Positions 8,109 through 39,919 are shown, numbered from the stretch's first letter. The stretch is DNA of 57,540 nt from Clostridia bacterium (GCA_017616435.1 JAFZYC010000045.1:1-57540), one strand, 5' to 3'. Notes: generated by a model from the sequence alone, not told the origin. Numbers and translations are program-made.

Positions 8109-8800
<692 letters not shown>

Positions 8801-13903: not shown

Positions 13904-13915
13904 GAACAGACCTGT

Positions 13916-15837: not shown

Positions 15838-15851
15838 AAGGAGTTCAAAAG

Positions 15852-16616: not shown

Positions 16617-16774
16617 TTCGCAACTTGTCGGTGAAAAGATACCCTGCATGAGATAATCGATCAACGCGAGAAAAGATGAATTCTTATTACGAATTTGGGG
16701 TGATGCAATACTATCGATTTTTATGGCCTTTTTCACTAGAATAACGACAACAAAACTAATGTATGGAGGTAAAT

Positions 16775-19067: not shown

Positions 19068-22000
19068 ATGCGAATAATACTGGCGTCGGATCTGCATATT
19101 TCAAATGACAGTACGCCCGAGAATTCACCTTGGGTAAATCATTTTTGTAATTTCCTGACGAAAAAACACGATCCGGAAACTCTTATAATCTTTATGGGAG
19201 ACATAATAGACAAGGGAAACGCAACCTCTTGCGATGCTGCGGATCGTATTTTTACACACATTGAAGCAAGGCTAAGAGGCATTAATCATAGCATTGGTTT
19301 TCTTCCGGGTAATCATGATTATTGCCGTGAGAGTTCGGATGCGTTCGATTTCTTTTGTTCTAAGCATCAAACGCTTATAACTGACTGGCATGGATTTAGC
19401 CGCCAAAAGGTTTACTCCTATTGTAGGGATGATATTCGTTGTAATTTTGTCTTGGCGGATTCAATTCAGGATAACAAATTCGATATCCCTGGTAAATTGG
19501 ATTTGAATGAAATCAGCAATCATACTGCGCCAAACAAGACAAATATCCTCTTGCTCCATCATAGTATTTATAATGAAGACACGTCTGAACATACAGGATT
19601 GGTAGAACAGCCCAGAGTTATAGAACTGCTTGATAAATATAACGTAGATTATGTTTTTCATGGCCATGGCCATTGCACAAGAGTTTTCAATGTTGGCATG
19701 CATACGAAAATGTTCGGAGTTGGTTCACTTGGTTTAAGCGGGGACTCGCTTGGGACTATTAACAATGAATTTGAACAGTTTTTCGAATTGACAATTAAAG
19801 ATGGCTACTTGGAAAACGTTGTAAACTGGTTGTGGCGAGAAAGCGGAGAGTATTACCCAATTCAAATATACCCAAATCCGAATACTGAATATGCTCCAAA
19901 TTTCTCGATAGAAAAGGTTTCATATGAGAAGCCTGATGAATACTATGATCGATACGTCATGGAGTATTCATTAAGCGGGGATGATTTTCTTATAGCTCTC
20001 AACGCTGATAAAAAGCAACGGCTTTCTGATGTTTGTACAAAGGACAGACGGATATTATTGATTGCCGATGCAGGAATGGGCAAGTCTATCGAGATGTCCC
20101 ATCTTGCATGGGAAATCGGTGAAACCAATCCATATTTACGTCCTGTTTTGCTCGGTCTAAACCACTACGACGAGGATAGCATTCAAGACTATATCAATAA
20201 GGAATATCCGCAATACAAAACCTTAGACCCTTCGCAGTTTATACTAATACTTGATGGATATGATGAATTATCAAACAGCATCCTATTTAAGAAGCATTTG
20301 CTTGTATATCTGGATCAGCATTCCGATATTCATGTTTGTATGTCATTAAGGAGTAATTTCCTATCAAAAAACATAGAACTGTTCGAAGGATTTAAGGTAT
20401 ATAGATTGCTCGGGCTTTCGCATGAAGACATTGAAACATTCTTGGATAGATTTGGGATAGACAGCGAGGCGTTTGTTTCCGAGTGCACATCAAAAAGAAT
20501 GGCGTCGTTCCTTGCCAATCCGTTTTACCTCAAATTGTTTGCTGATTATTATAGAGACAAAGGAACCATATCAAATCTGCCTGATGTTCTTGATCGTGTA
20601 ATTGAGAAGACTTTCGAGGAGGATTCAAAAAAGTTCGAGTATGTTGAATCTGTGACTCTCGAAGAAAGCAAGCATGATTGGAAAAGAGCGTTAACGAGGT
20701 TTGCATATGGACTACAACTGCTAAACAGGACTATATGCGACGATGATACCTACCAAGGCATTCTGGATACATGCGATTTACAGTTTTTGAAGCATAGCGG
20801 CATAATAATAAACAACAAAGGCGAACGCATGTTTTCTCATAATATTATCCGTGAGTATTTACTGGCGGATTGGATGAGAGAAGATACGACTGAAAGCATT
20901 ATGGAGCGGGCAGCATTGCCTAACGGAAAGGGTATTTATCAGAATTGGCATAATATAATAGGGCTTCTTCTGCAAGTAAACCCTTCTCCCCTATTAATCG
21001 ACATGGTTAATGATGCCGAACCGCTTTTACTTGCAAAGCTCGACTCGGAGTATGTAACTGATGATGTTAAACTTTCTATTCTAAAGCGATTCTTGGCAAA
21101 AACCGAGGATGAAAACATATGGTTCAATAATGGCGATTGCGACGAGATAGAGCTTGGGTCTTTTATTCAATCAGAGGCAGCGTTGTTGCTCCTTCTTGAT
21201 CATATTGAACATCCCAGGCATTTCCGTGGGCTGCATTTTTGTGTTGAAGTTTTACATGGCTTTACAAATTTGTATTGGCGCGACGATTATGTTCGTGACA
21301 CTCTAATCAACTGTTATCAGAGTAAAAATACCACGCCATATGTAAAATCAAAGGTCATTGAAACAATTGCGGCATTACATCTGGACAATAATGAGATTAC
21401 AGCAGATTTAGTATGCCGTTTCTCTGATGATGCAGACCCCTATGAGCGCAGAGGAGTTTACCGTTATTTAATTGTTTCAAACCGTGTCAACAACAATTAT
21501 GAGTGCTTGCTTGATGGACTAAAGCATGTTTCTTTTCGCGTCCATCGTTCAGACACTGCATATGGAATAGAAGAGTTTCCGTTACTGGATGGCTTGAATC
21601 AAATTGATGAAACGGCTTCTGTCATCGGTTCAATCCTTTGGTTTACCCAAGGAGATAATATCCGGACAGACGTCTTCAACCTGGATAAGTTTATTGATAG
21701 GATCATGTCGCTTGCTGTCGGACTGTTTGAACGAGTGGATGATGCTGTATTTGCGGCGGTTTATAAGTTTCTGGTTTCGGCAATAGAGAAACATGAGAAT
21801 AATAGGATTCATCATGCAATCGTTTTCTTCAAAAAGACGGATTCATTCATGGCGGCTATGAAAAAACTGTTTTCTGAAGAAGCCTGTGCGCAATATTATT
21901 TCTATTGGGAACAAGAGATTGAGGATCGTAAATCATTCGTTGAAACAATATGCCATTTAGGAGCAGAGGGTAAATTATTCGATTCATCTGTGCTTTCATC

Positions 22001-23456
22001 ATTTGCATACCGGTGGAACAATACGGAAGGAGTATTCCAGATCGTTGATGACACATTATTCAAATTAACAGGAAAACGGCTTGAACCATATAAACAGTTA
22101 TTTAGCTACTCAAAAAACCGGAAGGAAGATGCTCAGGTATTCTTTGATGCACTCTTTGACAAGGCAAAAATGCTAAGCCTTGTTGATGAATTGACCGTTG
22201 CATATAATGATCCGGAATTGAATTGCAGCAGGATACGGGAAGGCAGACTGGATTACGAGAGCTATCCTGTGGGTACAAGGAGTTTAGCGTTCAAATTGGC
22301 GAACGAGAGATTAATGGAATTAAAGGTCAAAGAAGTTTTTAATACAATCAATTGGGAGCTGTTTGTTGTTGATTCTGTATGTGGGATGCTTAATGCCGAT
22401 CCGGAGAATCGACCTGTGGTTAATGAATCTCAGCGTGAATACTTGCAAAAAGTGTATAATGATTTACTGGCATCTATAGATTTCCATACAGCCTACATCG
22501 AAACTGGAATGAACTGGCCTAAACTAAACAGTGCTGTGCTTTGGAGCTTAGTCCTTAAATCTGCGCTTAACTTCAGCACTCCGGAAAACTATTATGTCGG
22601 ATTAATTGAAATACCGTATATCTTGATGGATAAAGCCTCCGGTATAGAGGAAAAGTACAATTCTATTGAAGAAGTAATTGGTGCGTCACAAATTGTCAAT
22701 AGGATTTTGGATCTGATCCATACAGAAACCCGTGTCAACCTATTGTATGATTTCATGTATGCATGTGAACGTTATTCTATAAAAGGGTGCGAAATGGATG
22801 CACTTCGGCTGTGCGGTATGGATACGCCTAGTTATCATAAGTCCTATGCATTAAAGTATCTGAAGAAAGAGAGGGGGGCGCAATATATAATTGATAATAT
22901 TATGCACGAAGCTGATGATGAGCTGTTTATGGAAATAGTGAGGCTATTGTTCAAAGAGAGACTCGTATCGTTAACAGCAGTAATGGAAAAGAAGTTTGAG
23001 GAAACCCACAATCAAGAGCTTCTTGCAAAACTAATTTGGCTTGGCAATAAGGCTGCTTTTAAATATTATATTGATGAATCAAGAAAAAAGGGCTGCCCAA
23101 TCGATTATGAAGACCCTATGGAAAGCATAACCGAGAGCATCCGTAGTATTAGCGATCCGGGATGCCTGCCGTTCATATTGGATTGCATTCGTCTTCGTTA
23201 TGAAAAAGGGTTTGTTGACAATAAATTTTATACTCTTTATAATTCTATGTATAGCGCATTATTACAAAGTGCATCAGATAATAGTTCCATCGTAGTAGGA
23301 TCTTTGAAATGTCTAATTGCTGAAGATCAATCCAATATTGAACGAGTCGGTTTCTGCAATGCTGTATTAAACGAGATATACCAAAAAGAGAAAACAAATC
23401 CGATAATACCTTCACTTCGAGATGTTCGATTGAGCTTAAGTAGCCTTGAGATCTGA
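19068..23456 (+). CDS. Metallophosphoesterase-NACHT/STAND NTPase with a long helical C-terminus (NLR/Avs-like defence candidate)
   Basis: Calcineurin-like motifs SDLH, MGD, PGNHD, LLHH and HGHGH; Walker A ADAGMGKS; Walker B LILDGYDE; NPFYL; FSHNIIREYL. Confidence 0.85.
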   Translation: MRIILASDLHISNDSTPENSPWVNHFCNFLTKKHDPETLIIFMGDIIDKGNATSCDAADRIFTHIEARLRGINHSIGFLPGNHDYCRESSDAFDFFCSKHQTLITDWHGFSRQKVYSYCRDDIRCNFVLADSIQDNKFDIPGKLDLNEISNHTAPNKTNILLLHHSIYNEDTSEHTGLVEQPRVIELLDKYNVDYVFHGHGHCTRVFNVGMHTKMFGVGSLGLSGDSLGTINNEFEQFFELTIKDGYLENVVNWLWRESGEYYPIQIYPNPNTEYAPNFSIEKVSYEKPDEYYDRYVMEYSLSGDDFLIALNADKKQRLSDVCTKDRRILLIADAGMGKSIEMSHLAWEIGETNPYLRPVLLGLNHYDEDSIQDYINKEYPQYKTLDPSQFILILDGYDELSNSILFKKHLLVYLDQHSDIHVCMSLRSNFLSKNIELFEGFKVYRLLGLSHEDIETFLDRFGIDSEAFVSECTSKRMASFLANPFYLKLFADYYRDKGTISNLPDVLDRVIEKTFEEDSKKFEYVESVTLEESKHDWKRALTRFAYGLQLLNRTICDDDTYQGILDTCDLQFLKHSGIIINNKGERMFSHNIIREYLLADWMREDTTESIMERAALPNGKGIYQNWHNIIGLLLQVNPSPLLIDMVNDAEPLLLAKLDSEYVTDDVKLSILKRFLAKTEDENIWFNNGDCDEIELGSFIQSEAALLLLLDHIEHPRHFRGLHFCVEVLHGFTNLYWRDDYVRDTLINCYQSKNTTPYVKSKVIETIAALHLDNNEITADLVCRFSDDADPYERRGVYRYLIVSNRVNNNYECLLDGLKHVSFRVHRSDTAYGIEEFPLLDGLNQIDETASVIGSILWFTQGDNIRTDVFNLDKFIDRIMSLAVGLFERVDDAVFAAVYKFLVSAIEKHENNRIHHAIVFFKKTDSFMAAMKKLFSEEACAQYYFYWEQEIEDRKSFVETICHLGAEGKLFDSSVLSSFAYRWNNTEGVFQIVDDTLFKLTGKRLEPYKQLFSYSKNRKEDAQVFFDALFDKAKMLSLVDELTVAYNDPELNCSRIREGRLDYESYPVGTRSLAFKLANERLMELKVKEVFNTINWELFVVDSVCGMLNADPENRPVVNESQREYLQKVYNDLLASIDFHTAYIETGMNWPKLNSAVLWSLVLKSALNFSTPENYYVGLIEIPYILMDKASGIEEKYNSIEEVIGASQIVNRILDLIHTETRVNLLYDFMYACERYSIKGCEMDALRLCGMDTPSYHKSYALKYLKKERGAQYIIDNIMHEADDELFMEIVRLLFKERLVSLTAVMEKKFEETHNQELLAKLIWLGNKAAFKYYIDESRKKGCPIDYEDPMESITESIRSISDPGCLPFILDCIRLRYEKGFVDNKFYTLYNSMYSALLQSASDNSSIVVGSLKCLIAEDQSNIERVGFCNAVLNEIYQKEKTNPIIPSLRDVRLSLSSLEI

Positions 23457-23781: not shown

Positions 23782-24951
23782 TTAATCGTTGTCCGCTTCT
23801 ATGATCTCGTCAAGGTGCGAGACGTATTCCGTGCGCAGATGCGGCTTTGTGATATAAACGCCATCCTGCATACAGCACATGATGTAGAGCTCTCCCTCGG
23901 AGTTGATAAACATATCGCAGTTTGGATAACCAACGACGTTTCTATAGTCGACCAATGTTGAACCTGCAAGACTTCCGTCCGAATAATACACACGGTAACT
24001 CATTTCCCAAACAACCGGGTCGTAAGTTCCCGGAACGTACTCTATTACGTAAACGTACGCACGGTCGCCCATGAGTCGGCGCAGCCCCGGGTGTGTGTTC
24101 TCTCCGGTATTAAATGAAATGCTTCCATTCTCTGTCGTAATATTCATCTCGGGATCCAGTATTTTTTCGACGCTGCACTTGGAGATTTCGACAAACTCGC
24201 CATCCTTCAGCACCCAAAGTGTAAGAGAATGATCCACGAATGCAAGGCAGCCATCGTGCTCCGTCAGGTAAGCAACCATGGAAACCTTGATCTCCTGTTC
24301 GGGAAGCGGTATGCTTTCGAGCTCGTTTCCATCCAAATCAAAAGCGCGGATGCAGTCCCAGTAGATTTCGACAGGGCAAATATACATAGTTTCGCCTATT
24401 ACACAGATGGAACCGAGCTGGGCATACCCGTTATCGTTGGGAATGGTGATGTATCTCTTATTGCCGTTTTCGGATACGATCACCCTTCCGTTGACGGAGT
24501 CGAGAAGGTAAACCGTTTCACCGGAGATATAAAATGCCTGCGGAAAGTGATCGAATTCATCTTCATTCTCGATCGCATGATTATATCCGGCACAATCTTC
24601 GCTTTCTCCAAATGGAATATAAAGCAGTACCTCCGCATCCTTTATGCAGTCGCCTATCGCCTCGGGATCGTCGGGAAGCGGGAACTCCTCGATTGGCCTG
24701 AGCGTCGGCTCGGGAATCGGCGTTTCTGTGGGTTCCGGCGTAGGCTCCGCAGTGGGAGCTTCGGTAGGAAGCTCTGTATGTACCTGGGCCGGTGCTCCCG
24801 TAGAAATCTCCATTCCTGCGGAAGCGGAAGGCGTCGCATTTGCATTTATCGGAACCTTTGCTCCGGCACAACCACACAGAGACGATACAATTATAATAGC
24901 AGACAACATAATTGCTATATTTGCCTTTGTAATACCTCTCATATCAGTCAC
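23782..24951 (-). CDS. Lipoprotein with a PT linker and a beta-propeller-like domain homologous to the N-terminus of the upstream hydrolase (putative immunity protein)
   Basis: Lipobox LCGC. YIPFGESEDCAGY...PQAFYISGETVYLLDSVNGRVI and DGVYITKPHLRTEYVSHLDE match the 24970-26883 protein. Confidence 0.8.
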   Translation of the reverse strand: MTDMRGITKANIAIMLSAIIIVSSLCGCAGAKVPINANATPSASAGMEISTGAPAQVHTELPTEAPTAEPTPEPTETPIPEPTLRPIEEFPLPDDPEAIGDCIKDAEVLLYIPFGESEDCAGYNHAIENEDEFDHFPQAFYISGETVYLLDSVNGRVIVSENGNKRYITIPNDNGYAQLGSICVIGETMYICPVEIYWDCIRAFDLDGNELESIPLPEQEIKVSMVAYLTEHDGCLAFVDHSLTLWVLKDGEFVEISKCSVEKILDPEMNITTENGSISFNTGENTHPGLRRLMGDRAYVYVIEYVPGTYDPVVWEMSYRVYYSDGSLAGSTLVDYRNVVGYPNCDMFINSEGELYIMCCMQDGVYITKPHLRTEYVSHLDEIIEADND

Positions 24952-24969
24952 TCCTTTTTTTCATAGTTT

Positions 24970-26883
24970 TTACTTGGTTTCCATATCTATGGGCACTTTC
25001 TCGGGAAGAGGTATTTGATGGGAATACGCTCCGCATGTGCTGCAACGATATCCGGTAGAAATATGCACCCAACAGTGCGGCTCATTCAGAGTCGTGTATC
25101 CACAAGTTGTACAATTCTTCCAGTGATAGTAGTAATTATACTGATATCCTGACCAAGTGTGATTGCTCTTCGGTCCTGCCTCGCCACAATGAGTGCAGGT
25201 CTGCCAGTGTTTCGTGAAATTTGAATGGTAAGTACTTCCATAACTACAATTACCTCCACCGCAAGCATACGGCGAACGAAGCCGGTATCCGTTCAGATCG
25301 GATAACGACAGATTCCTAAATTTTACTCTTGCGGCTGAGTCAGTAGCACCTGAGGTAAGAGTTGTACATTCTATTGATGTCAAGCTGGTATCAGTATTTT
25401 TTGCGTAACAGAGGATAATGTGATTACCTGTAGCATCAGGGTCATCAGAGTACTTGACCAAGAAATCCATATACATAAGCTTTTCAAAGCTACTACAGCT
25501 GGGTATAGTACTGTTGCCTTGATTACCATAAATATAATGACCGTAGCTTGTGAAGTCCTCAGTGTTATGCCTTGAAATGTAGTAAGCATAGCTTACAAAA
25601 CCAGAACAATCCAAACCCGCAGTTCCCGGCACCTTACCATGATGATAATAATGATATGTATTTCCGCCAGTAGATTCGCCGATTATGTCATCAAAGCCGT
25701 CTTCATCTTCAGTCTCAAAATCAAGGAAATAGCCTCCCCAGCAATATGGTATTCCTGTCGCAGGGTCACCATCGTCGGTATCGAGCACATATTGTGGTAC
25801 TGTTATATGTGTTCCGCCCTGTTTGTTTCTGGCAGTTACGGTCCAAACATGATTCATCGCATTCTCGGCACGTGTTTTAACTTCAGCTCTTGTTTTACTT
25901 GTAACCGTCGAATACCTTGTAGGGATAATCTTACTATCGCTTTCAAGAATGCTTTCAGCGATCTCGGTAAGCTCGTCCATATGAGACTGATACTCCATAC
26001 GGAAGTTAGGCTTTGTAATGTATACGCCCTCTTCCCTGCAAAGCATGGTATAGACAATACCCGTGTAAGGATCTACATTAACTACGGTGTTGGGGAGGCT
26101 ATAAGCTTCGAGATTGTTAACGACCGTGCAGCCAAGGAGCTGCCCCTGCATATCATACTTCCTAACGGTGTATTCGGTTTCGATCACAGGAAGATAGGGC
26201 ACAAACTCATACACGCCGACAAGAAGCTCATTCTCGGAATGCTGGAGATACTGAACAAGGCAGGTCGGGCCGACGTCAAGGGCTACCTTTGCGTTCGGAA
26301 GAGAAAGCGTCTCTATCTGCTCAAACCGTCCGTCTACGCCGATCTGATAATCCTTGATCCACTCATAATCAGAGGAGTTCAGCTTGAAGCATTCAAGATC
26401 GTGAGTCAGCATGCAGAGTTCGCTGCCATTGCTGTAAACCTTATATACGTCGTTTGCCGCAACCTTTTCGGGGAACGAAACGCTTCGAAGGATCCTGCCG
26501 TTAATGTCCATGACACTAATGCCGCTGCCAACGAAATAGAAGCGGTCTCCGACAAGAGCAAACTTGGACGGATGCTCGATCCCGCTGACAGGTATATACC
26601 TTGCCGCACCGTCTTCAATAGCAACGATCCTGTTTTTCACTGAATCAAGAATGTATACATTGCCATCGCTGACAGCAAAGGATTCCGGCCCCATGTTTTC
26701 TTCCTCGTCTTCATAGTAGCCAATGGCATTCTCGCCATCCCCGGAGGGGATAAATGCAACGGCCACTGCATCGTCAAGCGCGTCGCCGGAGCAGTTCCTC
26801 TGCATATCGGGACGAGCTGCGGCATTTCCGATAACGGCAAATGCCATGATAAGCATAAGAATTATTGACAGTGTCTTTTTCAT
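24970..26883 (-). CDS. Secreted NlpC/P60-like hydrolase A: propeller-like N-domain, catalytic domain, His/Cys repeats
   Basis: Signal peptide; TGIPYCWGG, GLDCSGFVSYAY, NHIIL and SIEC; C-terminal HWQTCTHCG, HWKNCTTCG and RCSTCG. Confidence 0.8.
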   Translation of the reverse strand: MKKTLSIILMLIMAFAVIGNAAARPDMQRNCSGDALDDAVAVAFIPSGDGENAIGYYEDEEENMGPESFAVSDGNVYILDSVKNRIVAIEDGAARYIPVSGIEHPSKFALVGDRFYFVGSGISVMDINGRILRSVSFPEKVAANDVYKVYSNGSELCMLTHDLECFKLNSSDYEWIKDYQIGVDGRFEQIETLSLPNAKVALDVGPTCLVQYLQHSENELLVGVYEFVPYLPVIETEYTVRKYDMQGQLLGCTVVNNLEAYSLPNTVVNVDPYTGIVYTMLCREEGVYITKPNFRMEYQSHMDELTEIAESILESDSKIIPTRYSTVTSKTRAEVKTRAENAMNHVWTVTARNKQGGTHITVPQYVLDTDDGDPATGIPYCWGGYFLDFETEDEDGFDDIIGESTGGNTYHYYHHGKVPGTAGLDCSGFVSYAYYISRHNTEDFTSYGHYIYGNQGNSTIPSCSSFEKLMYMDFLVKYSDDPDATGNHIILCYAKNTDTSLTSIECTTLTSGATDSAARVKFRNLSLSDLNGYRLRSPYACGGGNCSYGSTYHSNFTKHWQTCTHCGEAGPKSNHTWSGYQYNYYYHWKNCTTCGYTTLNEPHCWVHISTGYRCSTCGAYSHQIPLPEKVPIDMETK

Positions 26884-26909
26884 ATGAACCTCCATTCATT
26901 TTATTGTTG

Positions 26910-26960
26910 TCAATATAGTTTGATAAGGGGTAGCGTCCTCATCACCGCTTTGCCTTGCAC
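26910..26960 (-). other. Leader ORF (16 aa, MQGKAVMRTLPLIKLY)
   Basis: GGAGGTGAT 8 nt before a GTG; stop codon about 27 nt before the hydrolase start. Paralleled at 30402-30449. Confidence 0.5.
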
Positions 26961-27108
26961 GATTCGTTATCACCTCCCATTTGATCTGCAAGGCCTCTAA
27001 AAAGCTTTTACTGAACAGTTTCACGCTCGATTCTCTCTTCGGCTCACCATTCTTTCTCCCTCTCAAAGAAAGCAAAACAAATAAGAAAAGTAATGTGAAT
27101 CTTTTGCT

Positions 27109-27151
27109 CTCTACTTTAATTACAAATGAGGTCGGCCAAAGGGGACAAGAT
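27109..27151 (-). promoter_or_regulatory. Conserved promoter-like motif, copy 2
   Basis: CTCTACTTTAATTACAAATGAGGTCGGCCAAAGGGGACAAGAT aligns with copies 1 and 3. Confidence 0.7.
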
Positions 27152-27341
27152 TTTTAAAAAAAAGAAGAATATATTTTTGCATCATCTACTTTGTTGCTTT
27201 AGATATGAAACATCTATTAGTGGAGATGAAAAGCATAATGATGAGCAGCAAATGAATTGTTGTCAATAAAAAACAGGACTGCTATCTACGCAGCCCTGTT
27301 ATAGAGTACTGTCATTTCACGACGCTATCTCGAAGAAGTCT

Positions 27342-28403
27342 TTAAATGCTAACAGCCCATACCATGAATTCATCCGGCAACGATGCACCAATATAGAGCG
27401 TTCCGTCTTCTGCCAAATTCAGCAGCATTAGGTTGTCCCAAAGATCTTCAAACGTGTATGGTATCTCAAGGATTGAGCGAACCAATCCATCAGGCGAGAC
27501 CTTAATTACGGTTTTGGTTTTGTTGATGCGGGTGAAATAGAAATTGCCATCGCGGTCTTTACCTAATACAGAATAACCGCAGCCATCAAAGGTCAACTCT
27601 GTTCCACTCGCAAAAGTGATCCTCGTCCATTCGCCGTTACTATCCTCGACCATCTTGCAGAGCGATTCTGTTTTCGTCCACATGTTTTTACTGTCAATTT
27701 CATAATAATCATAGCTCAGCGTATAAATACCCGATTCTCTCGACGCGCTGCTGAAGATCATCTTAGGCATCTGATCAATCAACTGCATATTCTCATCAAC
27801 AACGTCATCAGGTATGCTGTATTCAGACAGCAAGGATCCTGATTCAACATCGAAAGCACCTTCAACCGTATAAAGAACTCCCTTTAAGAGTACTGCAAGC
27901 CTATAGTCACTTAGGGCTATTTCACTATGACAGACAAGCTGGCCATTTGCATCATACATATACATACCCCTTATTGGTGCGACTCCAAAGTCACATACGA
28001 CTTTTGTTTCACCATCGACAGCAAAGAGAAATGGACCGAACGATGAAATGTCACTGCCATCATCTATCAGGTATAATACAGAATCACTAGGCGCATTCGT
28101 TGGAAGCGGACCATCATATGCTTTATACGGAATAAGCCGGAGTATCTCTTCAGCACAGTCCTCAAAGGATATAACTTCAGGAGCAGGTGTTTCCGTTGGA
28201 TGATTTGTGGGCATGGGAGAGACCACTTCAGCAGGTGTTTCCGTTTGTATCTCAGCAGTAGCTGTAGGAACGATCAGTGCCGAGGGTTGCGCAGTTACAA
28301 TCTCTGTCGGAACAGCTGTAACAGTTGGCTCGGTGCTCGACGAGCATGCCGCAGCAAAACAAAGAAGGATAATCATCAAGAAGAATACGATGGTCCGTTT
28401 CAT
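27342..28403 (-). CDS. Lipoprotein with a PT linker and a divergent propeller-like domain (putative immunity protein of hydrolase B)
   Basis: Lipobox AAAC. AEEIL...SVLYLIDD...FGPFLFAVDGE compares with hydrolase AEQIL...SVGYLEDE...MGPESFVVEDG; EDGTLYI compares with SDGSIYV. Confidence 0.7.
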   Translation of the reverse strand: MKRTIVFFLMIILLCFAAACSSSTEPTVTAVPTEIVTAQPSALIVPTATAEIQTETPAEVVSPMPTNHPTETPAPEVISFEDCAEEILRLIPYKAYDGPLPTNAPSDSVLYLIDDGSDISSFGPFLFAVDGETKVVCDFGVAPIRGMYMYDANGQLVCHSEIALSDYRLAVLLKGVLYTVEGAFDVESGSLLSEYSIPDDVVDENMQLIDQMPKMIFSSASRESGIYTLSYDYYEIDSKNMWTKTESLCKMVEDSNGEWTRITFASGTELTFDGCGYSVLGKDRDGNFYFTRINKTKTVIKVSPDGLVRSILEIPYTFEDLWDNLMLLNLAEDGTLYIGASLPDEFMVWAVSI

Positions 28404-28414
28404 ATAAAGCCTCC

Positions 28415-30370
28415 TTAATTCAGCGTTTGTATAATCTTGGAATCATAGTCCTTCTTGCAGGACTGTAATCCCGAACCTATAGAGTATGGAGTTATAGGGC
28501 TATTTGTTTCATATCCGCATACAGAGCACCTATATGTTGTCCCACTCCACACGAACGAATGATATGCGATATCCTTTCGAGCTCCGCACTTAATGCATTC
28601 ATGATAGTGATAAACATCTGAATGACTGTAAACAGCCCTATAAGAGTGGTCTTCTTCAACCGAGTTACCGCAAATGGAGCAAGTGCAAACATGATTGGTG
28701 CCATTATCTGTATAGGTGTTTTGACAGCCACCAACAGTACACGAATACGGGCTCTTCATCAAGAAACCATCAAGGTAAGAGAAACTGTAATTCTTATTCA
28801 CAACTTTACCATAAGTGTTTCTTGAAGCATGAATTACTTTTACATCGGTTGTAATATGCCATTCATCATAAAGGACAATATGGTTTCCAGCCTCAACCAT
28901 ATAATCCATTTTTTTCATTAACTCGATATGGCTTTGCGTTTCACTGCCGGTGGTGGAAACCGTGCTGATATAGTATCCATTATCGGGATCAGCAAAGTCT
29001 CCGGTAGTCCAATAGGAACTGCTTGGGGCATGATAAGCATAGCAAACCAGTCCAGAACAGTCAAGTCCTGTGGAACCATACACATGATGAGCGGCAACAT
29101 TTCCTGCCGTATAGTACTTGTTCAAGCCATCATCTGGGTAAATCGTGTTGAGTTTGCTGGCAAAACTGCTCGGGCCGTCATGCATTCCTCTGCAATAAGG
29201 AATACCAGTCATAGACTTGTTGCTTGTCACACCTGCTTCATCAACCGGTAAGATGATAGTTGTACCATTGTACGTCCTTATCGTTGCATTTTTAGAAGGC
29301 TTGAAGGTCCATGAATAGTCGACACAACTCATTGCTCTTGAACGCACAGTACTTCGAGTGTAAGAAGTAATTGCAGGCCCTTGTGTCCTGGTGTTAACAC
29401 CATAATACCTACAGAGCTCATTCGCCTCTTGAGTTTTCAACTCCATTTCCGAATCGTATTCCATTCTTAAATATGGTCTGGTGATATAAATACCATCATC
29501 CATGCAGTGCATTACATAGATAGAACCATCAGAAGATTCATATACATCATCGGAAGGATAGGCAAATGCTTCGTTTTCTTCAATCAAGGTACAGCCAACA
29601 AATTCTCCTTCGGTATTGTAGAACCTTATTGTTCGTTCAAACTTAAGCACCGGAACATCAGGAACAAATTCATAGATGCCCAGCACAATCCGACCATTTG
29701 ACTGAGTAATGTACTGCGCAGCAGTATTTTTACCGGCTCTAATGGTTACTGCGGCTCCATCATCAGTGTTGATTATAAACTCGTCATCACAGTCAGCAAT
29801 ACATGAGATCTTTGCAGATTTGCTCCATATATGCTTAACACAGTCAAAGGAGTACGTTTGAAGATTCTGATCTGTCAGGGAAATGTTGCCATTTTTATTG
29901 GATTCGATTCTGTAAACAAAATCAGAAGTCATATCATCAGGCAAGGTATACTTGTCTATGGTATTCTTTGCCCTAGTTATCTCAAACAAAGCATTGCTTT
30001 CATCGTCGGTAACATAAATCTTTCCATTAGCAACACACATATGCTTGGGGTATGATACCCCGGGAAGATCAATCGTCGAGAAGCTGTTATTGTTTTCAAT
30101 GATTATTCTTGAATTCACAGTGTCAAGAATGTAAATCGCTCCGTCTTCTACCACGAAAGACTCCGGGCCCATGTTAAAGGGCTCATCCTCCAAATAGCCA
30201 ACGCTAGTAGTCTTGCTGTTAGATGCCGGCATATACAGGATTTGCTCTGCATCATAAAGACTAGAAGCGGTTTTTTCAGTTCGCTTCGTTGAAACAGCAC
30301 CATTTGCTGATGCAGAAAGCGAACAGCAGATCATCAGCACGCCTAAAAGTGCAAGTAAAAACCTTTTCAT
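28415..30370 (-). CDS. Secreted NlpC/P60-like hydrolase B, paralog of 24970-26883
   Basis: Signal peptide; NMGPESF..DGAIYILD; TGIPYCRG, GLDCSGLVCYAY, NHIVL and VIHAS; HVCTCSICG, HYHECIKCG and RCSVCGY. Confidence 0.8.
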   Translation of the reverse strand: MKRFLLALLGVLMICCSLSASANGAVSTKRTEKTASSLYDAEQILYMPASNSKTTSVGYLEDEPFNMGPESFVVEDGAIYILDTVNSRIIIENNNSFSTIDLPGVSYPKHMCVANGKIYVTDDESNALFEITRAKNTIDKYTLPDDMTSDFVYRIESNKNGNISLTDQNLQTYSFDCVKHIWSKSAKISCIADCDDEFIINTDDGAAVTIRAGKNTAAQYITQSNGRIVLGIYEFVPDVPVLKFERTIRFYNTEGEFVGCTLIEENEAFAYPSDDVYESSDGSIYVMHCMDDGIYITRPYLRMEYDSEMELKTQEANELCRYYGVNTRTQGPAITSYTRSTVRSRAMSCVDYSWTFKPSKNATIRTYNGTTIILPVDEAGVTSNKSMTGIPYCRGMHDGPSSFASKLNTIYPDDGLNKYYTAGNVAAHHVYGSTGLDCSGLVCYAYHAPSSSYWTTGDFADPDNGYYISTVSTTGSETQSHIELMKKMDYMVEAGNHIVLYDEWHITTDVKVIHASRNTYGKVVNKNYSFSYLDGFLMKSPYSCTVGGCQNTYTDNGTNHVCTCSICGNSVEEDHSYRAVYSHSDVYHYHECIKCGARKDIAYHSFVWSGTTYRCSVCGYETNSPITPYSIGSGLQSCKKDYDSKIIQTLN

Positions 30371-30401
30371 TGTTAATCTTCCTTTCTTTGTTAAAGTTGT
30401 T

Positions 30402-30449
30402 TTACAAACCCAACCTGCAGCATATTAGCAAAGGCAGGAGCAACTGCAC
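30402..30449 (-). other. Leader ORF (15 aa, MQLLLPLLICCRLGL)
   Basis: GGAGGTGAT 9 nt before a GTG; stop codon about 32 nt before the hydrolase start. Confidence 0.5.
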
Positions 30450-30516
30450 AATTCTACTATCACCTCCATTATTAGCAAACCTTTCAAGTCGCTTGATAGA
30501 GTCCGAGCTATCTGCG

Positions 30517-30559
30517 CTCTACCTTTATTACAATTGAACCCACCAAAAGGGGACAAAGA
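30517..30559 (-). promoter_or_regulatory. Conserved promoter-like motif, copy 3
   Basis: CTCTACCTTTATTACAATTGAACCCACCAAAAGGGGACAAAGA. Confidence 0.7.
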
Positions 30560-30941
30560 TTTTGCATAAAAATAAAATATATTGTGCGTCGTGTGGACTT
30601 TAAAAGTCCTTATTAAGAGTTATTAATTGGAGTTTTCAGCATTTCTAAAATAAATTAACCAACAGATTATTAGCTTTCTGGCAGGACTTTCAAAGTCCTG
30701 TTTATTCTCCAGGCAAATCTGTATTATGTAGCGCACAGGAAGCTGATTCCTGAATGCAACATTCAATGCCTGATATGCATTAAGGGCAAAGGATATGAAT
30801 AAGGTTCCCGGCATTAACGGGAAGCCGAGATTCAATACCCTTATCTTAATGCATTCAATCGGACGGTATTGAACTCACTCCGGCAGTATAGCTCCTTATT
30901 CTGTCCTTTCCCAAGGCACCTTTCAGGTGGAAAGGAAAAAG

Positions 30942-31448
30942 ATGAAAAACAAAAACTATAAGGTCGTGAAGGATGATGATGGAAAGAAGACTTACTTTGC
31001 AAAGGCATTTGGGGAATGGATCGAAGTAACAAAGGAAGTATTCAGCTTCATGACGTCTAACGACAGGCGTATGCGATACATATATGCTCGGGAAGCGGAA
31101 GAAGGCTGCATCTCTCTTGACGCAATCTATGAGGCTACCGAAGAAACCGAAAACCCGTTATTCGCGGAAGATATGCCAAGCACGCCCGGACCGGATGGCG
31201 ATATTCTGGACAGGTTATGCGGATCAACGGATGAGCTATTTATCTCCGTTATCAACGAAAAGCTCGACGAACTTCGAGGCCTCGACAGGATCATTGCTAT
31301 GGAGGTGTTCATCAATAAAAGAAGTATGGTCGAGTATTCGGCAGCGATCAGAGTATCAAGACAGGCTCTTATGAAAAAAGTCCAAAGGATATCAAAAAAG
31401 ATCAGAAGCAACTGTATGAAGGAGTTAATGGAGAAATATGAAAGCTGA
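30942..31448 (+). CDS. Sigma-70 region-4-like HTH protein of an integrative element
   Basis: WIEVTKEVF and ISLD motifs; C-terminal SMVEYSAAIRVSRQALMKK; precedes xis-int. Confidence 0.7.
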   Translation: MKNKNYKVVKDDDGKKTYFAKAFGEWIEVTKEVFSFMTSNDRRMRYIYAREAEEGCISLDAIYEATEETENPLFAEDMPSTPGPDGDILDRLCGSTDELFISVINEKLDELRGLDRIIAMEVFINKRSMVEYSAAIRVSRQALMKKVQRISKKIRSNCMKELMEKYES

Positions 31449-31686
31449 AACAAGAAACGATCCCGAAGCAAAGCGATACTGTAGTTATGAGGACGTCCCC
31501 CTGCTCCTTGACGCAAATGACATCGTTATGCTTACCGGTCTTGCGCGCACTAACGTCTACTACATGCTTCGTGCAAATGATTTCCCAGTGATCGTGATAG
31601 GGAAGAGGCGTATGGTCAAAAAAGAGAAGCTCTTTGCATGGCTGGATGAACATGAAAAGAAGATCTTTCCCGGAAGAAGCGAGTAA
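31438..31686 (+). CDS. Excisionase-like HTH protein
   Basis: SYEDVPLLL...LTGLARTNVYYML...FPVIVIGKRRMV.KEKL..WL; directly upstream of the integrase. Confidence 0.85.
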   Translation: MKAETRNDPEAKRYCSYEDVPLLLDANDIVMLTGLARTNVYYMLRANDFPVIVIGKRRMVKKEKLFAWLDEHEKKIFPGRSE

Positions 31687-31790
31687 TAGCATGTTCAATA
31701 ATTGTTTCAAAAGATGCATCGGCATCCTCAACATATCAACGAAGGCCGTTTATACTGCAATCGAACTCAATGACAGAAGGAGGCAATAAC

Positions 31791-32921
31791 ATGGCAAAAG
31801 CTAAGAAAAGAGAGAACGGCCTGTATCATAAGAACATGGTCGTCGGAAGGAAAGAGGACGGAAGCTATATCCGCAAGTCTGTGTATGGGAAAACAAAAAA
31901 GGAGCTCGAATCAAAGGTGATGGAGCTCACGCAGCAGATCAATAACGGTATTGCTGTCTGGAAAAATGATATGACCTTTAAGGAACTGTCCGATATTTGG
32001 TTCGAGCAGTATAATCCGACGGCAACCGAACGATGGCATTATCACAATGGCCTAACCGTTAAGAACCATCTGCTTCCTTATATAGGCGGGATGAAGGTGC
32101 GGGATCTTCGGCAGATCCATCTGCAGTCGATCATCAGCAATCTTGCGAAAAACGATTATTCCACGCATACCATGAGGGATATAAAGCAGATCGCCGCAAG
32201 GATCATGAAGGTCGCCGTTGATTCGGACCTCATTATGAAAAACCCCTTTGCCGGCGTCACCATACCAAACAAGGAGGCAAATGCTCGCCAGCCATTATCC
32301 CCTGAGCAGATCAAGCTTGTGACGGATAATTGGAGAGGGCACAGGATGGGCCTTCCGGTGATGATAATGCTGTATGCCGGCCTCAGGAGGGGAGAGATGC
32401 TTGCTCTGCAGTGGGAAGACGTCGATATAGACAAAAAGCTGATCCATGTAACGAAGTCTCTCTGCTTCCTAAAGAACGCCTCCACAATAAAAGCGCCGAA
32501 GACAAAGGCGGGAACGAGGTGTGTCCCGATCCCGAACGTACTGCTTGCTCCTCTCATCGAAACAAAGAAGACAAGCGGAACGATATGCCCCTCTGTCGAA
32601 GGAGAGCTTATGACCTATACCGCATATAGGCGGGCATGGGATTCCTACATGAACTACCTGAACGTATGCGCGGGAGGGTTCATAAGCGACTGCAAGCAGA
32701 GGCCCCGGATACAGAAGATGGAGCCATTCACCGCGCATATGCTGCGTCACACATATGCAACCATGCTGTTTGACGCAAACGTCGATGTGAAATCCGCCCA
32801 GAAGTTTCTTGGGCACTCAAGCGTAGAGGTCACGCTGAGCATTTATACCCACCTGACTCAGTTTAAAGAGGACGCGGCAATAGAGGCGCTGAATGAGCAT
32901 TTAGATAGTACCTGCATGTAA
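31791..32921 (+). CDS. int: Tyrosine recombinase/integrase
   Basis: Arm-binding RKSVYGKTKKE; catalytic GLRRGEMLAL, K(APKTKAG), HMLRHTYAT, LGH and IYTH are all intact. Confidence 0.93.
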   Translation: MAKAKKRENGLYHKNMVVGRKEDGSYIRKSVYGKTKKELESKVMELTQQINNGIAVWKNDMTFKELSDIWFEQYNPTATERWHYHNGLTVKNHLLPYIGGMKVRDLRQIHLQSIISNLAKNDYSTHTMRDIKQIAARIMKVAVDSDLIMKNPFAGVTIPNKEANARQPLSPEQIKLVTDNWRGHRMGLPVMIMLYAGLRRGEMLALQWEDVDIDKKLIHVTKSLCFLKNASTIKAPKTKAGTRCVPIPNVLLAPLIETKKTSGTICPSVEGELMTYTAYRRAWDSYMNYLNVCAGGFISDCKQRPRIQKMEPFTAHMLRHTYATMLFDANVDVKSAQKFLGHSSVEVTLSIYTHLTQFKEDAAIEALNEHLDSTCM

Positions 32922-33028: not shown

Positions 33029-34048
33029 TTATTCAATCGTTGCTTTGATCCTTTTTGCCAGCTTTTCAGCAAGCTCTGTTTCATTATCCCAAAGAACCGT
33101 ATTGACCTGTTTGACGTCAAAGTGTCCATCAGTTCCAAACTGTTCGCTTTTGCAGACATGAATAACATCTTTTCCTAAGCCCAAAGCATATCCGGCTTCA
33201 TAGTATGCTCCGTTGTTGTGCCCGGTTAATTCGGCTATAACGAATCTTGCTTGTCGAATCTCATATAGCATTTCCGGAACTATCTGATGATTATGCTCTA
33301 TTTCGTCCATGATTCTCGGCTCATATCCACAGCCAATAATAGCCTTTTTTATTGCTGCTCTTACTGGATCCATCTCGGGTTTGAACGACATAGCTACAAA
33401 TACTTGTTTTTGCATCAAACGTGAGTTATCTTTCTGTAACTCATCAACACGCTGCCATCCCTTAGGAGCAAGTCGGCAAGTCATGCGCCCATCTGAAGAA
33501 AATGCAACATTGCTGAGCAACTCGTTTTTTGTCATATAGTCTTTTAGAAAATCCACCTGGCTATAGATGGCCTTATGATCCAGCAAACTGCGATTATCCG
33601 CTCTATATCTATCAATAAAGAAACAAGCCATTTTCTCTTCATTGGTCAGCTCAATGGCAGCACCCATAACGCTTGTTCTTTGAGCTAACATTAACAGTAT
33701 CCTGTTAATTTTCTCGTTAAATGTTTTGGGATACCAATTTGTGATCACATCATCCGTAATATGCGAAATCCTTACATATACCGTTTTAAAGTGGTCATAT
33801 TCCTCTTGAGTTCCTATAAAGTTTGTTCCTCCAACAACCCCTTCTAAATCATGTTCGTCATGTATGGCATTATAAAACAAATATGAGGCTAGCTTGTTCT
33901 TGTTCTGAGGAATACTCTTATTATTTCCTCCAGAACTGGCTGTAAAAAGGTAATTGCCGCATACCGGGCATTTGATCATAACTGCATCTGGAATAACAGG
34001 ATAAAACTTTATATTCTGAGTTCCGCACACATTACAACTCTGTGACAT
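33029..34048 (-). CDS. Zn-ribbon protein with a C-terminal nucleoside 2-deoxyribosyltransferase/TIR-like domain
   Basis: CNVCG and CPVCG at the N-terminus; VFVAMSF...IAELTGHNNGAYYEAGYALGLGKDVI...HFDV at the C-terminus. Confidence 0.75.
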   Translation of the reverse strand: MSQSCNVCGTQNIKFYPVIPDAVMIKCPVCGNYLFTASSGGNNKSIPQNKNKLASYLFYNAIHDEHDLEGVVGGTNFIGTQEEYDHFKTVYVRISHITDDVITNWYPKTFNEKINRILLMLAQRTSVMGAAIELTNEEKMACFFIDRYRADNRSLLDHKAIYSQVDFLKDYMTKNELLSNVAFSSDGRMTCRLAPKGWQRVDELQKDNSRLMQKQVFVAMSFKPEMDPVRAAIKKAIIGCGYEPRIMDEIEHNHQIVPEMLYEIRQARFVIAELTGHNNGAYYEAGYALGLGKDVIHVCKSEQFGTDGHFDVKQVNTVLWDNETELAEKLAKRIKATIE

Positions 34049-34093: not shown

Positions 34094-35533
34094 TCATTGC
34101 CTTGCTGCATAATACTTCTGGTACTTGCTCTTCGGCTTATCTGGAATCGTAAGCGCGAGAAGGCCTTCCTCGACCATGGGCTTTATGAGCTTTTCCATAG
34201 CATAGGCAATAGTGATCCTTCCTTTGAACAGCTCTGCCAACTCTGCACGGCTCTTGGGAGTCCTGCAAAAGGCGATTATCTCCGCTTGTTCCGGATCGAG
34301 CTTTTGTGCAGGTACGGAGCGGTTGTAGAGCGTTGCCCTGAATACCCCTCTGTCATTCTCAAACTTCGGGGCTGGCAAGCCGTATTCCTCCATAGCGCTT
34401 ATGATTGTCGGTATCCCGCTGTAACGGTTCTCGGTCTCGCCCAGAATCTCCATCGCGTTTGCTATCGAGGGATTTCTCGTATCCGCAGAAACTTTTCCGA
34501 GCCTGTCGAGAGTCATCCTTCCATACAGGCCACCCGGGTTCTCTATCTCAAATCGGTCGCTGAACATCCTGATCGTCACAGGCGTTGAATCCGTATGGAT
34601 GCTGTAATCCCTGTGGATAAGGGCGTTGAGTATGAGTTCCCTGAGCGCGATTACCGGGTATTCCGTCCTGTCGACTCGTTTCCCCGTCAAGGGATCGATT
34701 ATCGTAGCAGTTTTCATGTTCTTGCGGACGAACAGAAGCGCTTCATCCACCATCTGCGGAAGGGTGCCGTCGATCCTCTTATTGTCGATAAACCGCTCAC
34801 CAACGCTTCCAGTACTGCTTATTTCCGTACCGGGTACGGATACCGCAGTTATGCAGAGCTGCGGGAAGAACGCCTGAGGATAGCTTGAGAACAGCAGTAA
34901 TCCCGCGAGAGTGGGCTTTCCATCCTCTGTGAAGCCCTGCAGCCTGCCGATCTCCTCCACGGGGAGGCCTGCAAGATGAGGCTTCTTGCCTTTCAGCAGA
35001 TCGAGATAGAGATCGAATGCCGGAGTCCTGACGTCCCTTTCTTCCGCTCTCTCCGAGATCCTGAGTTCATCATGAATCTTCTTTCTGAATGCTTCAAAGC
35101 TGTAGACCTCGTATTCTGTCATGAGCCTGTCTGCGTCGCCGGAACGGATATAGGAGCCTCCGATCCTGCCGACTCCGCTGTAAAAGCACGGCTTATCGGA
35201 ATTGTCGATCTCCTGTATCTCGGCAGAAACAACGGGTTTGCCATCGATCGATGCAGTGGTAAATAGAGGTCTTATCACGGGCGTCATCTGTTGGCACTGC
35301 GCATCGACTTTTTTGATAAGATCGGCCGCATCGTAAACCCCGCAGACGCTGAAACTATCATTTTCGTCCACACCGAATACAATGATCCCGCCTCCGGTTT
35401 GGTTAGAAAAAGCAGACAGCGTCTCGCGCACCTTGGGGCATCCGTTCTTTGCGGACTTTACCTCGACCGTGTTGCTCTCGCTTTGAACGTTCTGAATATC
35501 CCTTATTATCTTTTCAAGTTCGTTTTCGAGCAT
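34094..35533 (-). CDS. Schlafen/AlbA_2 domain plus HATPase_c_4 (RecG-C-like) and winged-HTH protein
   Basis: ESNTVEVKS, LSAFSNQTGGGIIVFGVDE, RELILNALIHRDYS, NPGGL, RNP.IA and PKSKYQKY. Confidence 0.85.
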   Translation of the reverse strand: MLENELEKIIRDIQNVQSESNTVEVKSAKNGCPKVRETLSAFSNQTGGGIIVFGVDENDSFSVCGVYDAADLIKKVDAQCQQMTPVIRPLFTTASIDGKPVVSAEIQEIDNSDKPCFYSGVGRIGGSYIRSGDADRLMTEYEVYSFEAFRKKIHDELRISERAEERDVRTPAFDLYLDLLKGKKPHLAGLPVEEIGRLQGFTEDGKPTLAGLLLFSSYPQAFFPQLCITAVSVPGTEISSTGSVGERFIDNKRIDGTLPQMVDEALLFVRKNMKTATIIDPLTGKRVDRTEYPVIALRELILNALIHRDYSIHTDSTPVTIRMFSDRFEIENPGGLYGRMTLDRLGKVSADTRNPSIANAMEILGETENRYSGIPTIISAMEEYGLPAPKFENDRGVFRATLYNRSVPAQKLDPEQAEIIAFCRTPKSRAELAELFKGRITIAYAMEKLIKPMVEEGLLALTIPDKPKSKYQKYYAARQ

Positions 35534-39583: not shown

Positions 39584-39919
39584 GTGCGGCGAGGTGTGCT
39601 TTGTTCACGCTTGAGAAAACATTGAAAAACCATGCTGAGAAACGCAGCTTGATCGGTTTTTATATGACCTCGCAGAGCCGCATATTGAACGAGTTCGAGC
39701 GAACTATTGATGGATGTTATTCGTCAAAAACGCTTGCGAGTCACCGATCACGACCGGTCGTTAGGCAGGGAATGAGCTAAAGAGGATCGCGATAAGAACA
39801 TTATCTAATAATTTTATTTGCATAAAATATCTCGATAGTCTTGACAAGCATCTTTTTTGCCGCTAATATCAAATATAAGCAAAGCGGAGCGGGGCAGAAT
39901 GCCCCGAAAGGAGACGTAT

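Follow-up and report, generated by a model that had tools for sequence, protein, structure and literature searches.

The window analysed here is a stretch of 57,540 nucleotides from a Clostridia bacterium (GCA_017616435.1 JAFZYC010000045.1:1-57540), and its subject is two neighbouring gene pairs, each a cassette in which the gene for a secreted hydrolase (HydA or HydB) is followed by the gene for a lipoprotein (LipoA or LipoB). As judged by BLASTP for LipoA and by profile-profile alignment for LipoB, the two lipoproteins are free versions of the N-terminal domain (N-domain) of the hydrolases, and they end where the catalytic domain would begin. The anatomy and evolution of the cassettes, as they can be read from the DNA, are solid and unusual, and the function of the lipoprotein is proposed from them: the cassette may encode a secreted peptidoglycan endopeptidase together with a lipid-anchored paralogue that protects the producing cell in the manner of an immunity protein, a reading that in our judgement falls just short of an even bet.

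A preliminary description of this DNA had claimed that LipoA matches the N-domain of HydA and stops at the start of the catalytic domain, and pairwise BLASTP bears this out: residues 37-311 of HydA align with residues 100-385 of LipoA at 29% identity (E=3e-30), and all three motif pairs quoted in that description are present in the alignment. LipoA ends four residues past a motif, ...GVYITKPxLRxEYxSHxDE, that it has in common with the HydA N-domain. HydB aligns with LipoA at 27% identity (E=8e-30), and HydA and HydB align with each other over their full length at 29% identity (E=1e-79). LipoB had been called a more divergent version, and pairwise BLASTP does not see it at all, since against HydA, HydB or LipoA only the signal peptide and the proline/threonine-rich (PT) linker match (E>0.1). 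The relationship was found by hhalign, with a 16-member alignment of the LipoB family (A2) compared to a 29-member hydrolase alignment (A1): residues 79-353 of LipoB align with residues 38-298 of HydA over 246 columns, with a probability of 99.4% and E=1.3e-21, and the LipoB C-terminus coincides with the last strand of the N-domain fold. Pairwise and hidden Markov model (HMM) alignment had been proposed as a check, and by it both lipoproteins align significantly with the hydrolase N-domains. The stretches conserved between enzyme and lipoprotein sit at both ends of the N-domain. An exhaustive search found just 29 representatives of the LipoB family at E<=1e-3 among 1.84 billion; the LipoA type counts 25 proteins, and the hydrolase family has roughly 100 database homologues.

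The preliminary description also took the lipoprotein for a copy of the N-domain of the very hydrolase beside it, and this part stands for some lineages and not for the window. By BLAST score against LipoA, HydA ranks only fifth among 11 hydrolases that carry the C-terminal tail described below, and by this measure LipoA is a family-level paralogue, not a specific copy of the HydA N-domain. At two other loci, L019a and L022, the lipoproteins score highest with their cognate hydrolase (rank 1 of 11), and at L050b the cognate enzyme comes second; on these rankings the phrase is literally true in some lineages.

Cassette layout and domain identities

All four open reading frames (ORFs) of the two cassettes are present on the minus strand, in the order HydB, LipoB, HydA, LipoA. 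The features of the cassettes and their immediate flank are as follows, with residue numbers in brackets.

28415-30370, minus strand: HydB, secreted hydrolase, ORF of 651 residues
29432-30277 (about residues 32-313): HydB N-domain
28754-29392 (residues 327-539): HydB NlpC/P60-like domain
28418-28753 (residues 540-651): HydB Cys/His tail
27342-28403, minus strand: LipoB, lipoprotein, ORF of 353 residues
27345-28169 (residues 79-353): divergent propeller of LipoB, after a lipobox (...AAAC) and a P/T-rich linker
27300-27272, minus strand: terminator-like hairpin after LipoB, 11 bp with 6 GC, then a T-run (consensus scan only)
27266-27238, minus strand: promoter-like site after that hairpin (consensus scan only)
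24970-26895, minus strand: HydA, secreted hydrolase, ORF of 641 residues, likely start at 26883
25960-26790 (residues 36-312): HydA N-domain
25276-25923 (residues 325-540): HydA NlpC/P60-like domain with C430 and H492
24973-25275 (residues 541-641): HydA Cys/His tail
23782-24951, minus strand: LipoA, lipoprotein, ORF of 389 residues, likely start at 24942
23797-24654 (residues 100-385): propeller of LipoA, after a lipobox (...LCGC) and a PT linker
30371-30926, minus strand: non-coding region upstream of the HydB-LipoB unit, with several promoter-like sites (consensus scan)
30927-32921, plus strand: ORFs divergent from the HydB-LipoB unit, comprising a sigma-like ORF, an HTH_17 ORF and an integrase module

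The database version of HydA (P0005, 637 residues) starts 4 codons further in, and that of LipoA (P0146, 386 residues) 3 codons further in. The genes within a pair are separated by 11 nt (HydB-LipoB) and 18 nt (HydA-LipoA), and the pairs by a spacer of 446 nt that contains the hairpin and the promoter-like site, which according to the consensus scans divide the four genes into two two-gene units. Contigs from RNA libraries (four runs from two studies, gut samples according to their records) match parts of all four genes. They are mostly 99-100% identical to the cassette genes, read-sized and of depth 2-4, and may be DNA carry-over. Three of them, from 3 runs and 2 studies, run across the junction of HydB and LipoB and have over 31 letters to either side of it, which is weak evidence; the single contig across the HydA/LipoA junction was not counted, as it has fewer than 31 letters on the LipoA side. 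These contigs are compatible with expression and co-transcription of the cassette genes.

In HydA and HydB alike, a signal peptide is followed by an NHL-like propeller, then by a divergent NlpC/P60 domain and finally by a Cys/His tail. This is the architecture given in the preliminary description, and profiles support it; the signal peptides, of the Sec type, were judged by eye. Single-sequence scans found no Pfam family above threshold apart from a marginal NHL match in HydB (22.1 bits for a cutoff of 20; HydA scores 13.2 bits). Over profile positions 65-135 the hydrolase profile A1 matches the NHL propellers of PknD (6e-9) and of the Pizza designs (4e-22), the latter E-value being inflated because the Pizza proteins have six identical blades; A1 also matches NlpC/P60 structures. 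Independently of this, a LipoA-type profile (A3) matches Pizza at 8e-8 and PknD at 2.5e-3, and the LipoB-type profile matches the NHL domains of TRIM2/3 (5e-4) and Mei-P26 (1e-3) along with WD40 propellers, in the range 5e-4 to 1e-3. The NHL signature is confined to the first one or two blades; a closed six-bladed propeller seems the likely fold of the N-domain, given that signature and a length of about 275 residues, which is compatible with six blades. In a protein atlas the best feature match (0.91) is an unnamed cluster with NHL in 24% of its members, which was taken as a lead only.

The catalytic domain has no Pfam NlpC/P60 match in single-sequence scans, and its NCBIfam matches are all below threshold; yet a profile of the catalytic domain alone (A5) matches 18 distinct PDB sequences at E<=0.01, all of them NlpC/P60 endopeptidases. 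The best are 8er5 (3.4e-8), RipA and RipB (about 2.5e-7), Spr/MepS (1e-5) and LytE (5e-5), and on this ground the domain is placed as a divergent member of the NlpC/P60 superfamily. The NlpC/P60 cysteine (C430 of HydA, in GLDCSG) and histidine (H492) are invariant and fall in the catalytic columns of the PDB alignments, and both are kept in all three hydrolase paralogues of the genome, the third of which is described below. Across 29 family members and 27 catalytic domains there is little or no variation at C430 and at P383-Y384-C385..G387; a PYxWGG-type motif of the domain aligns with the corresponding motifs of 8er5 and RipA-type chains, and H492 with the histidine of 'HVsIYV' and 'QHVTIYLG' in PDB chains. 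NlpC/P60 enzymes have a third polar catalytic residue (His, Glu, Asp, Asn or Gln) after the histidine; at this place a majority of the family has E-x-T-T, which is not invariant and lies beyond the end of the PDB alignments. Pfam scans and searches with the tail found no recognised cell-wall-binding module in the enzyme.

LipoA and LipoB belong to families of predicted bacterial lipoproteins. The lipobox cysteine is kept in at least 90% of both (C20 of A2, C28 of A3) and is followed by the P/T-rich linker; the calls rest on these conserved columns, as the script pattern is loose, mis-flags hydrolases and misses lipoproteins.

The tail of the hydrolases is built from a unit about 30 residues long that is present one to four times, Y...HW-x2-C-x1-3-CG-x7-9-H-x-W, closed by Y-x-C-x2-C. 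Searches of Pfam, NCBIfam and the PDB gave only sub-threshold zinc-ribbon-like matches (best E=0.004) and assigned no family, and a word-indexed search with the tail alone returned just the protein itself and one close fragment. A tail profile found similar modules inside large ORFs (loci L055-L065) in 31 of 400 genomes of the class Clostridia, counting the window's own. Among ten such ORFs that were scanned, seven contain surface-protein families (Big_2, CBM_X2, MBG_2, Flg_new, BspA-type leucine-rich repeats, cohesin and DUF6273) and three contain none. The tail appears from this to be a general extracellular binding or spacer module, probably stabilised by metal, and is probably an undescribed family of extracellular metal-knuckle domains.

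Distribution, further copies and origin of the lipoproteins

Four HMMs, covering N-domain, catalytic domain, tail and B-type (LipoB-like) domain, were mapped on all ORFs of at least 90 residues in 23 genome-contig loci, 5 loci from a class-wide genome search and 6 metagenome loci, the last being close relatives of one another and several of them near-identical. A lipoprotein of N-domain type follows all 15 evaluable tail-bearing hydrolases, or 13 when exact duplicates are counted once. Three of the 15 are in the window's own genome, two each at L019, L050 and L051, and one each at L018, L020, L022, L025, L049 and L052; loci L017, L021 and L023, which are cut by contig ends, were left out of the count. 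The hydrolase-lipoprotein pairing is kept in other organisms, as the neighbourhood survey suggested in the preliminary description was meant to find out. L019, in a Christensenella metagenome-assembled genome (MAG), has two tandem cassettes, one A-type (LipoA-like) and one B-type.

Enzymes that have the N-domain and the catalytic domain and no tail are different: none of nine (L024, L026-L029, L032 and L041-L043, the last three with only 1.5 kb of flank examined) has a lipoprotein in its locus, and some tail-less relatives carry the Pfam families SH3_3, CW_binding_2 or CARDB instead. The preliminary description had named homologues usually lacking a lipoprotein as an outcome that would speak against it, and that outcome is seen for the tail-less enzymes and not for the tail-bearing ones. 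At L025 (454-2601) there is a natural split form, a protein with signal peptide, catalytic domain and tail and no N-domain, followed by a free propeller lipoprotein. Lipoproteins can also be in surplus: L020 and L022 have two for each hydrolase, L050 and L052 have extra ones, and L048 has three in a row. At E<=1e-20 the hydrolase family occurs in 6 of 400 genomes of the class, the window's own included, and the other five hold tail-less or catalytic-only forms.

The count of two cassettes in the preliminary description holds for the window and not for the genome, which is 91% complete and has three. The third lies on the same contig as the window and consists of HydC (589 residues, 38% identical to HydA by BLASTP), a gap of 83 nt and LipoC (332 residues), a B-type lipoprotein (LipoB vs LipoC, E=7e-8). 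The three cassettes are 29-40% identical to each other. Two further lipoproteins of free-propeller type were found. One is an orphan of 653 residues on contig C45 (L015 5544-7505) with two tandem propeller domains, the first A-type (39% identical to LipoA, E=2e-63) and the second belonging to this superfamily as a further divergent form (hhalign 95.9%, E=6e-9); no hydrolase was found within the 8.4 kb examined around it. The other is an A-type ORF on C27 that is cut by the contig end upstream. Proteins similar to the C45 orphan, 647-665 residues long, are also in the database (P0160, P0163, P0165), as is a protein of 581 residues (P0137) in which the end of an N-domain-like region is followed by an unrelated middle and a B-type domain, and which could stem from a fusion or from mis-calling of the ORF.

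A tree of 44 propeller domains (IQ-TREE, LG+C20) indicates that the lipoprotein propellers are derived more than once from hydrolase N-domains. The N-domain of the L022 hydrolase has as its sister group the two lipoproteins encoded downstream of it (support 100/98), and the L019a and L050b hydrolases cluster with their own lipoproteins (100/100). The main A-type clade, nine rows including the window's LipoA (100/100), sits within a 99/97 group together with the HydA/HydB/HydC clade, and the B type branches off deep in the tree (72/22). Supported branches require at least five changes of the A-type label, and an approximately unbiased (AU) test, with six long-branch rows left out and the tested group named after the tree was seen, rejects a single clade of lipoprotein propellers (difference in log-likelihood 110.8, p=5e-7). 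Gene conversion between neighbours could mimic repeated duplication. The identity between a hydrolase N-domain and its cognate lipoprotein is 29-39%.

The composition of the genes differs from that of the host in parts. From position 1 to about 38000 the window has a GC content (GC) of 44%, compared to 57.5% for the remainder, and the HydA-LipoA and HydB-LipoB cassettes lie on this low-GC island, at the contig start and next to an integrase (an HTH_17 ORF and a tyrosine integrase at 31438-32921 flank them). In the third cassette HydC has GC 0.402 and third-codon-position GC (GC3) 0.375, and LipoC has GC 0.602 and GC3 0.775, with flanks of 0.58 and 0.62. The low-GC patch comprises the HydC ORF and the spacer and has sharp edges (L014 ~8150-10050; G000:C92 ~78150-80050). 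The orphan lipoproteins are host-like in composition (GC3 0.69 and 0.71). Of seven cassettes from other organisms, six have a hydrolase gene richer in AT than the lipoprotein gene, the exception being L022. The GC3 gap between HydC and LipoC is, on these values, too large for an amino-acid effect, and it would point to one of two causes: the hydrolase genes arrived or were replaced more recently, or atypical codons have been selected for in them. The composition fits a conflict system with a mobile enzyme gene and a resident lipoprotein gene.

Several other genes were seen around the cassettes. The island also holds an ImmA/IrrE-type peptidase with a helix-turn-helix (HTH) regulator (5155-6260), a resolvase fragment (8109-8594) and a ParB_N protein (8814-9692). 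Four neighbours look defence-like: an ATPase_2/DUF234 protein at 3543-5003 that matches the PADLOC candidate PDC-S27 (1.7e-59), a Metallophos-NACHT protein of 1462 residues at 19068-23456, a protein at 33029-34048 with a weak C-terminus of the TIR or nucleoside 2-deoxyribosyltransferase-like kind, and a Schlafen AlbA_2 and HATPase_c_4 protein at 34094-35533. A second wall-related cluster on the island, at 11440-18082, contains an Rv2525c-like glycoside-hydrolase-like protein, DUF4358 and a DHHW protein, and also an extracytoplasmic function (ECF) sigma factor with a DUF4179 protein and an Amidase_6 protein of 439 residues. Two subtilases with C-terminal type I dockerins (39857-41398 and 42914-46606) suggest a cellulosome-type surface system in the host. 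A role in conjugation or as a phage lysin was set aside, since Pfam and PADLOC scans of the neighbours show no such module (PHROGs were not scanned).

Proposed function and rival explanations

Export, peptidoglycan cleavage, binding, protection and any antibacterial role are inferred. In the proposed mechanism a Sec-exported endopeptidase of the NlpC/P60 superfamily, with an N-terminal NHL-like propeller and C-terminal Cys/His knuckles that are probably metal-binding, would leave the cell, while the lipoprotein propeller, tethered by its P/T-rich linker at the outer face of the producer's membrane, would neutralise the enzyme at the place where the nascent wall of the producer is open to attack. 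This could happen in two ways. In the first, which is the mechanism of the preliminary description, with the N-domain as an autoinhibitory prodomain, the free propeller would do in trans what is proposed for the cis propeller, binding to the catalytic or tail part and keeping the enzyme inactive near the membrane; in the second, it would compete by taking an envelope ligand or partner that the enzyme's propeller needs. The first is favoured of the two, since any domain in contact with the catalytic domain of its own protein would lend itself to use as an inhibitor, and it is put forward only tentatively, as a doubtful proposition when taken by itself.

Self-protection is preferred on several grounds. 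The pairing is strict, with short gaps between the paired genes in the window, and the lipoprotein would sit on a long tether at the outer face of the membrane. Lipoproteins occur in surplus and as orphans, and they were derived more than once from the N-domain of the enzyme. The distribution is patchy, in part on an island, and enzyme and lipoprotein genes differ in composition. The split form at L025, where a free propeller follows an enzyme that has no N-domain, counts in favour as well, and so do the precedents discussed below. The copy-number pattern of the lipoproteins, with its arrays and orphans, is typical of immunity genes as far as gene content goes, and the distribution resembles that of conflict systems (three divergent cassettes in one genome, an island beside an integrase, 6 of 400 genomes).

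A number of observations weigh against this preference. LipoA is no nearer to HydA than to other hydrolases, and with HydA only fifth of 11, tight cognate co-evolution is not suggested. HydA and HydC are mutual closest paralogues, yet HydA pairs with an A-type and HydC with a B-type lipoprotein, so that partner types are swapped between close paralogues, and a foreign-looking HydC beside a host-like LipoC would be awkward if immunity were strictly cognate. The ancestral role of the N-domain need not have been autoinhibition, because the nine tail-less relatives keep it with no lipoprotein in the locus. Among the 30 window ORFs scanned there is no dedicated bacteriocin exporter, lysis gene or component of a type VI or type VII secretion system, and neither LXG nor contact-dependent inhibition (CDI) delivery families were found among them. 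Membrane-anchored activators and regulators of peptidoglycan hydrolases are common, and for this reason adjacency alone does not favour inhibition. The neighbours of three non-Firmicute loci (L030, L038 and L039) show weak partial propeller matches (E 1e-7 to 5e-3) and were scored negative; these could point to a remote analogue of the pairing or be no more than generic matches to NHL. These loci, from Calditrichia, Bradymonadales and Propionicimonas MAGs, hold catalytic-only relatives, and one neighbour has a lipobox-like start. Finally, the association of tail and lipoprotein is not separable from shared ancestry, because in a tree of 33 catalytic domains the tail needs 2 changes and supported branches give 1 independent contrast (sign test p=1). 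A functional coupling of tail and lipoprotein was dropped on this account, and the association is not used as evidence of an interaction between them.

The rival that survives best, though we consider it unlikely, is that the lipoprotein is an anchor or regulator that recruits, tethers or activates an autolysin at the cell's own surface, for wall remodelling or cell separation, through a propeller-propeller or propeller-tail contact. The enzyme has no recognised wall-binding module, and some tail-less relatives do have SH3_3, CW_binding_2 or CARDB; the tail module recurs in large proteins of surface or adhesin type, which suggests a role in docking or binding; and a docking contact of a generic kind would suit both the swapped partner types and the missing cognate-specific similarity. 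RipA, moreover, is described in the cited account as being under the control of protein partners (PMC3585148). A housekeeping regulator would not be expected to be as rare as 6 of 400 genomes, nor to come in three divergent copies per genome, on an integrase-flanked island and with surplus and orphan lipoproteins, and a compositionally foreign enzyme gene next to a host-like partner would be unexpected as well.

Less likely again, and improbable in our view, is that the two proteins share a ligand and have no direct contact. Both propellers would bind the same envelope or environmental polymer, that of the enzyme targeting its substrate (for example rumen or gut bacterial walls used as food) and that of the lipoprotein serving for capture or adhesion. 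N-terminal accessory domains of NlpC/P60 enzymes are usually targeting modules, and the tail-less relatives retain the propeller with no partner. The conserved ends of the domain may likewise mirror fold constraints and not a shared interface, because the ends of a propeller close its ring. What a shared ligand does not explain is the repeated derivation of the lipoproteins from the neighbouring enzyme's domain, the operon pairing in 15 of 15 cases, the tandem lipoprotein arrays, and the fact that the cassettes contain no uptake transporter.

That the lipoprotein is a domain duplicate inherited by chance beside its source gene within one subfamily, with no functional meaning, is very improbable: the tail-bearing, lipoprotein-associated enzymes do form one or two clades with 1 independent contrast, and several metagenome loci are near-identical, but the pairs are old (cognate identity 29-39%, the B type being seen only by profile), reading frames, lipobox cysteine and gene order have all been kept despite that age, there were multiple origins, and the orphan lipoprotein genes are intact and have host-like codon usage.

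If self-protection is correct, and the lipoprotein neutralises the enzyme, the cassettes would be a single-membrane hydrolase-inhibitor system in which the antidote is a membrane-tethered paralogue that evolved repeatedly. This would explain how makers of secreted wall hydrolases avoid suicide, and immunity genes could then be recognised by a sequence rule, as genes for lipoproteins with homology to the N-domain of the enzyme next door. A wider proposal is that the cassettes represent an undescribed class of Sec-secreted bacteriolytic NlpC/P60 enzymes in gut and rumen Clostridia, with immunity arising by repeated duplication and lipid-anchoring of the toxin's propeller, the toxin genes being mobile and the lipoproteins accumulating and fusing as a standing shield. 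We regard it as possible and on the unlikely side; if true, it would be a general route to immunity against extracellular wall hydrolases, in which a domain of the toxin itself becomes the antidote. Should the lipoprotein instead be an anchor or activator, it would represent a new mode of autolysin control. Three unannotated domain families would be added to those catalogued: the propeller, the divergent NlpC/P60 branch and the Cys/His knuckle repeat.

Comparison with known systems

Five known systems resemble the cassettes in part. One is the type VI pair Tse1/Tsi1 (Tae/Tai), in which the gene for an NlpC/P60-type peptidoglycan amidase or endopeptidase lies beside that for a protein in the compartment to be protected; Tsi1 is described as a partial beta-propeller that inhibits the NlpC/P60-type amidase Tse1 (PMC3391265). 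Type VI pairs are Gram-negative, whereas the cassette host belongs to the class Clostridia and presumably has a single membrane, and the cassette enzyme has a Sec-type signal peptide and no secretion-system genes among the 30 neighbouring ORFs scanned. The partner in the cassette is a predicted lipoprotein homologous to the enzyme's own domain, and such homology is not reported for Tsi1 in the cited account.

The preliminary description had pointed to Spi as a precedent, and rightly, as Spi is described as a propeptide analogue, an inhibitor encoded beside speB (PMC2873492). As in the cassettes, the inhibitor gene adjoins the enzyme gene, and the inhibitor resembles the enzyme's N-terminal region. 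SpeB, however, is a C10 protease and not a wall hydrolase, and what the cassette proteins share is a domain of about 275 residues with propeller-like repeats instead of a short propeptide, on a partner that is predicted to be lipid-anchored.

Two further systems concern the control of NlpC/P60 enzymes. RipA of mycobacteria is an NlpC/P60 endopeptidase made as a zymogen, whose N-terminal domain blocks the active site until it is processed; the cited account describes the blocking domain only as N-terminal and mentions no free paralogue (PMC3585148). IseA (YoeB) of Bacillus subtilis is likewise a secreted protein inhibitor that acts on endopeptidases of NlpC/P60 type, namely D,L-endopeptidases such as LytE, in self-control of wall hydrolysis; in the cited account iseA is WalR-regulated and is not described as encoded beside its target (PMC7299342). 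RipA figures among the best PDB matches of the cassette's catalytic domain (2.5e-7). To our knowledge the RipA blocking domain is not a propeller, and IseA is unrelated to its targets and not a lipoprotein.

Firmicutes also have bacteriolysins, or class III bacteriocins. One of them, Bac41, is a secreted endopeptidase bacteriocin that kills related cells and has an immunity gene, BacI, in its operon; it differs in requiring the accessory protein BacA, and BacI is not reported in the cited account to be homologous to BacL1 (PMC13532309). With lysostaphin-type enzymes, immunity is a matter of modifying the wall.

A keyword search of a subset of the open-access literature, supplements excluded, found no description of a cassette of a hydrolase and an N-domain lipoprotein. 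Altogether, secreted wall hydrolases with adjacent inhibitor or immunity proteins are already known, as are inhibitors that resemble an enzyme's own propeptide. Different here is their combination in an unannotated family of the class Clostridia, with a shared domain the size of a propeller, a free copy that is predicted to be lipid-anchored, and an origin that seems to have been repeated.

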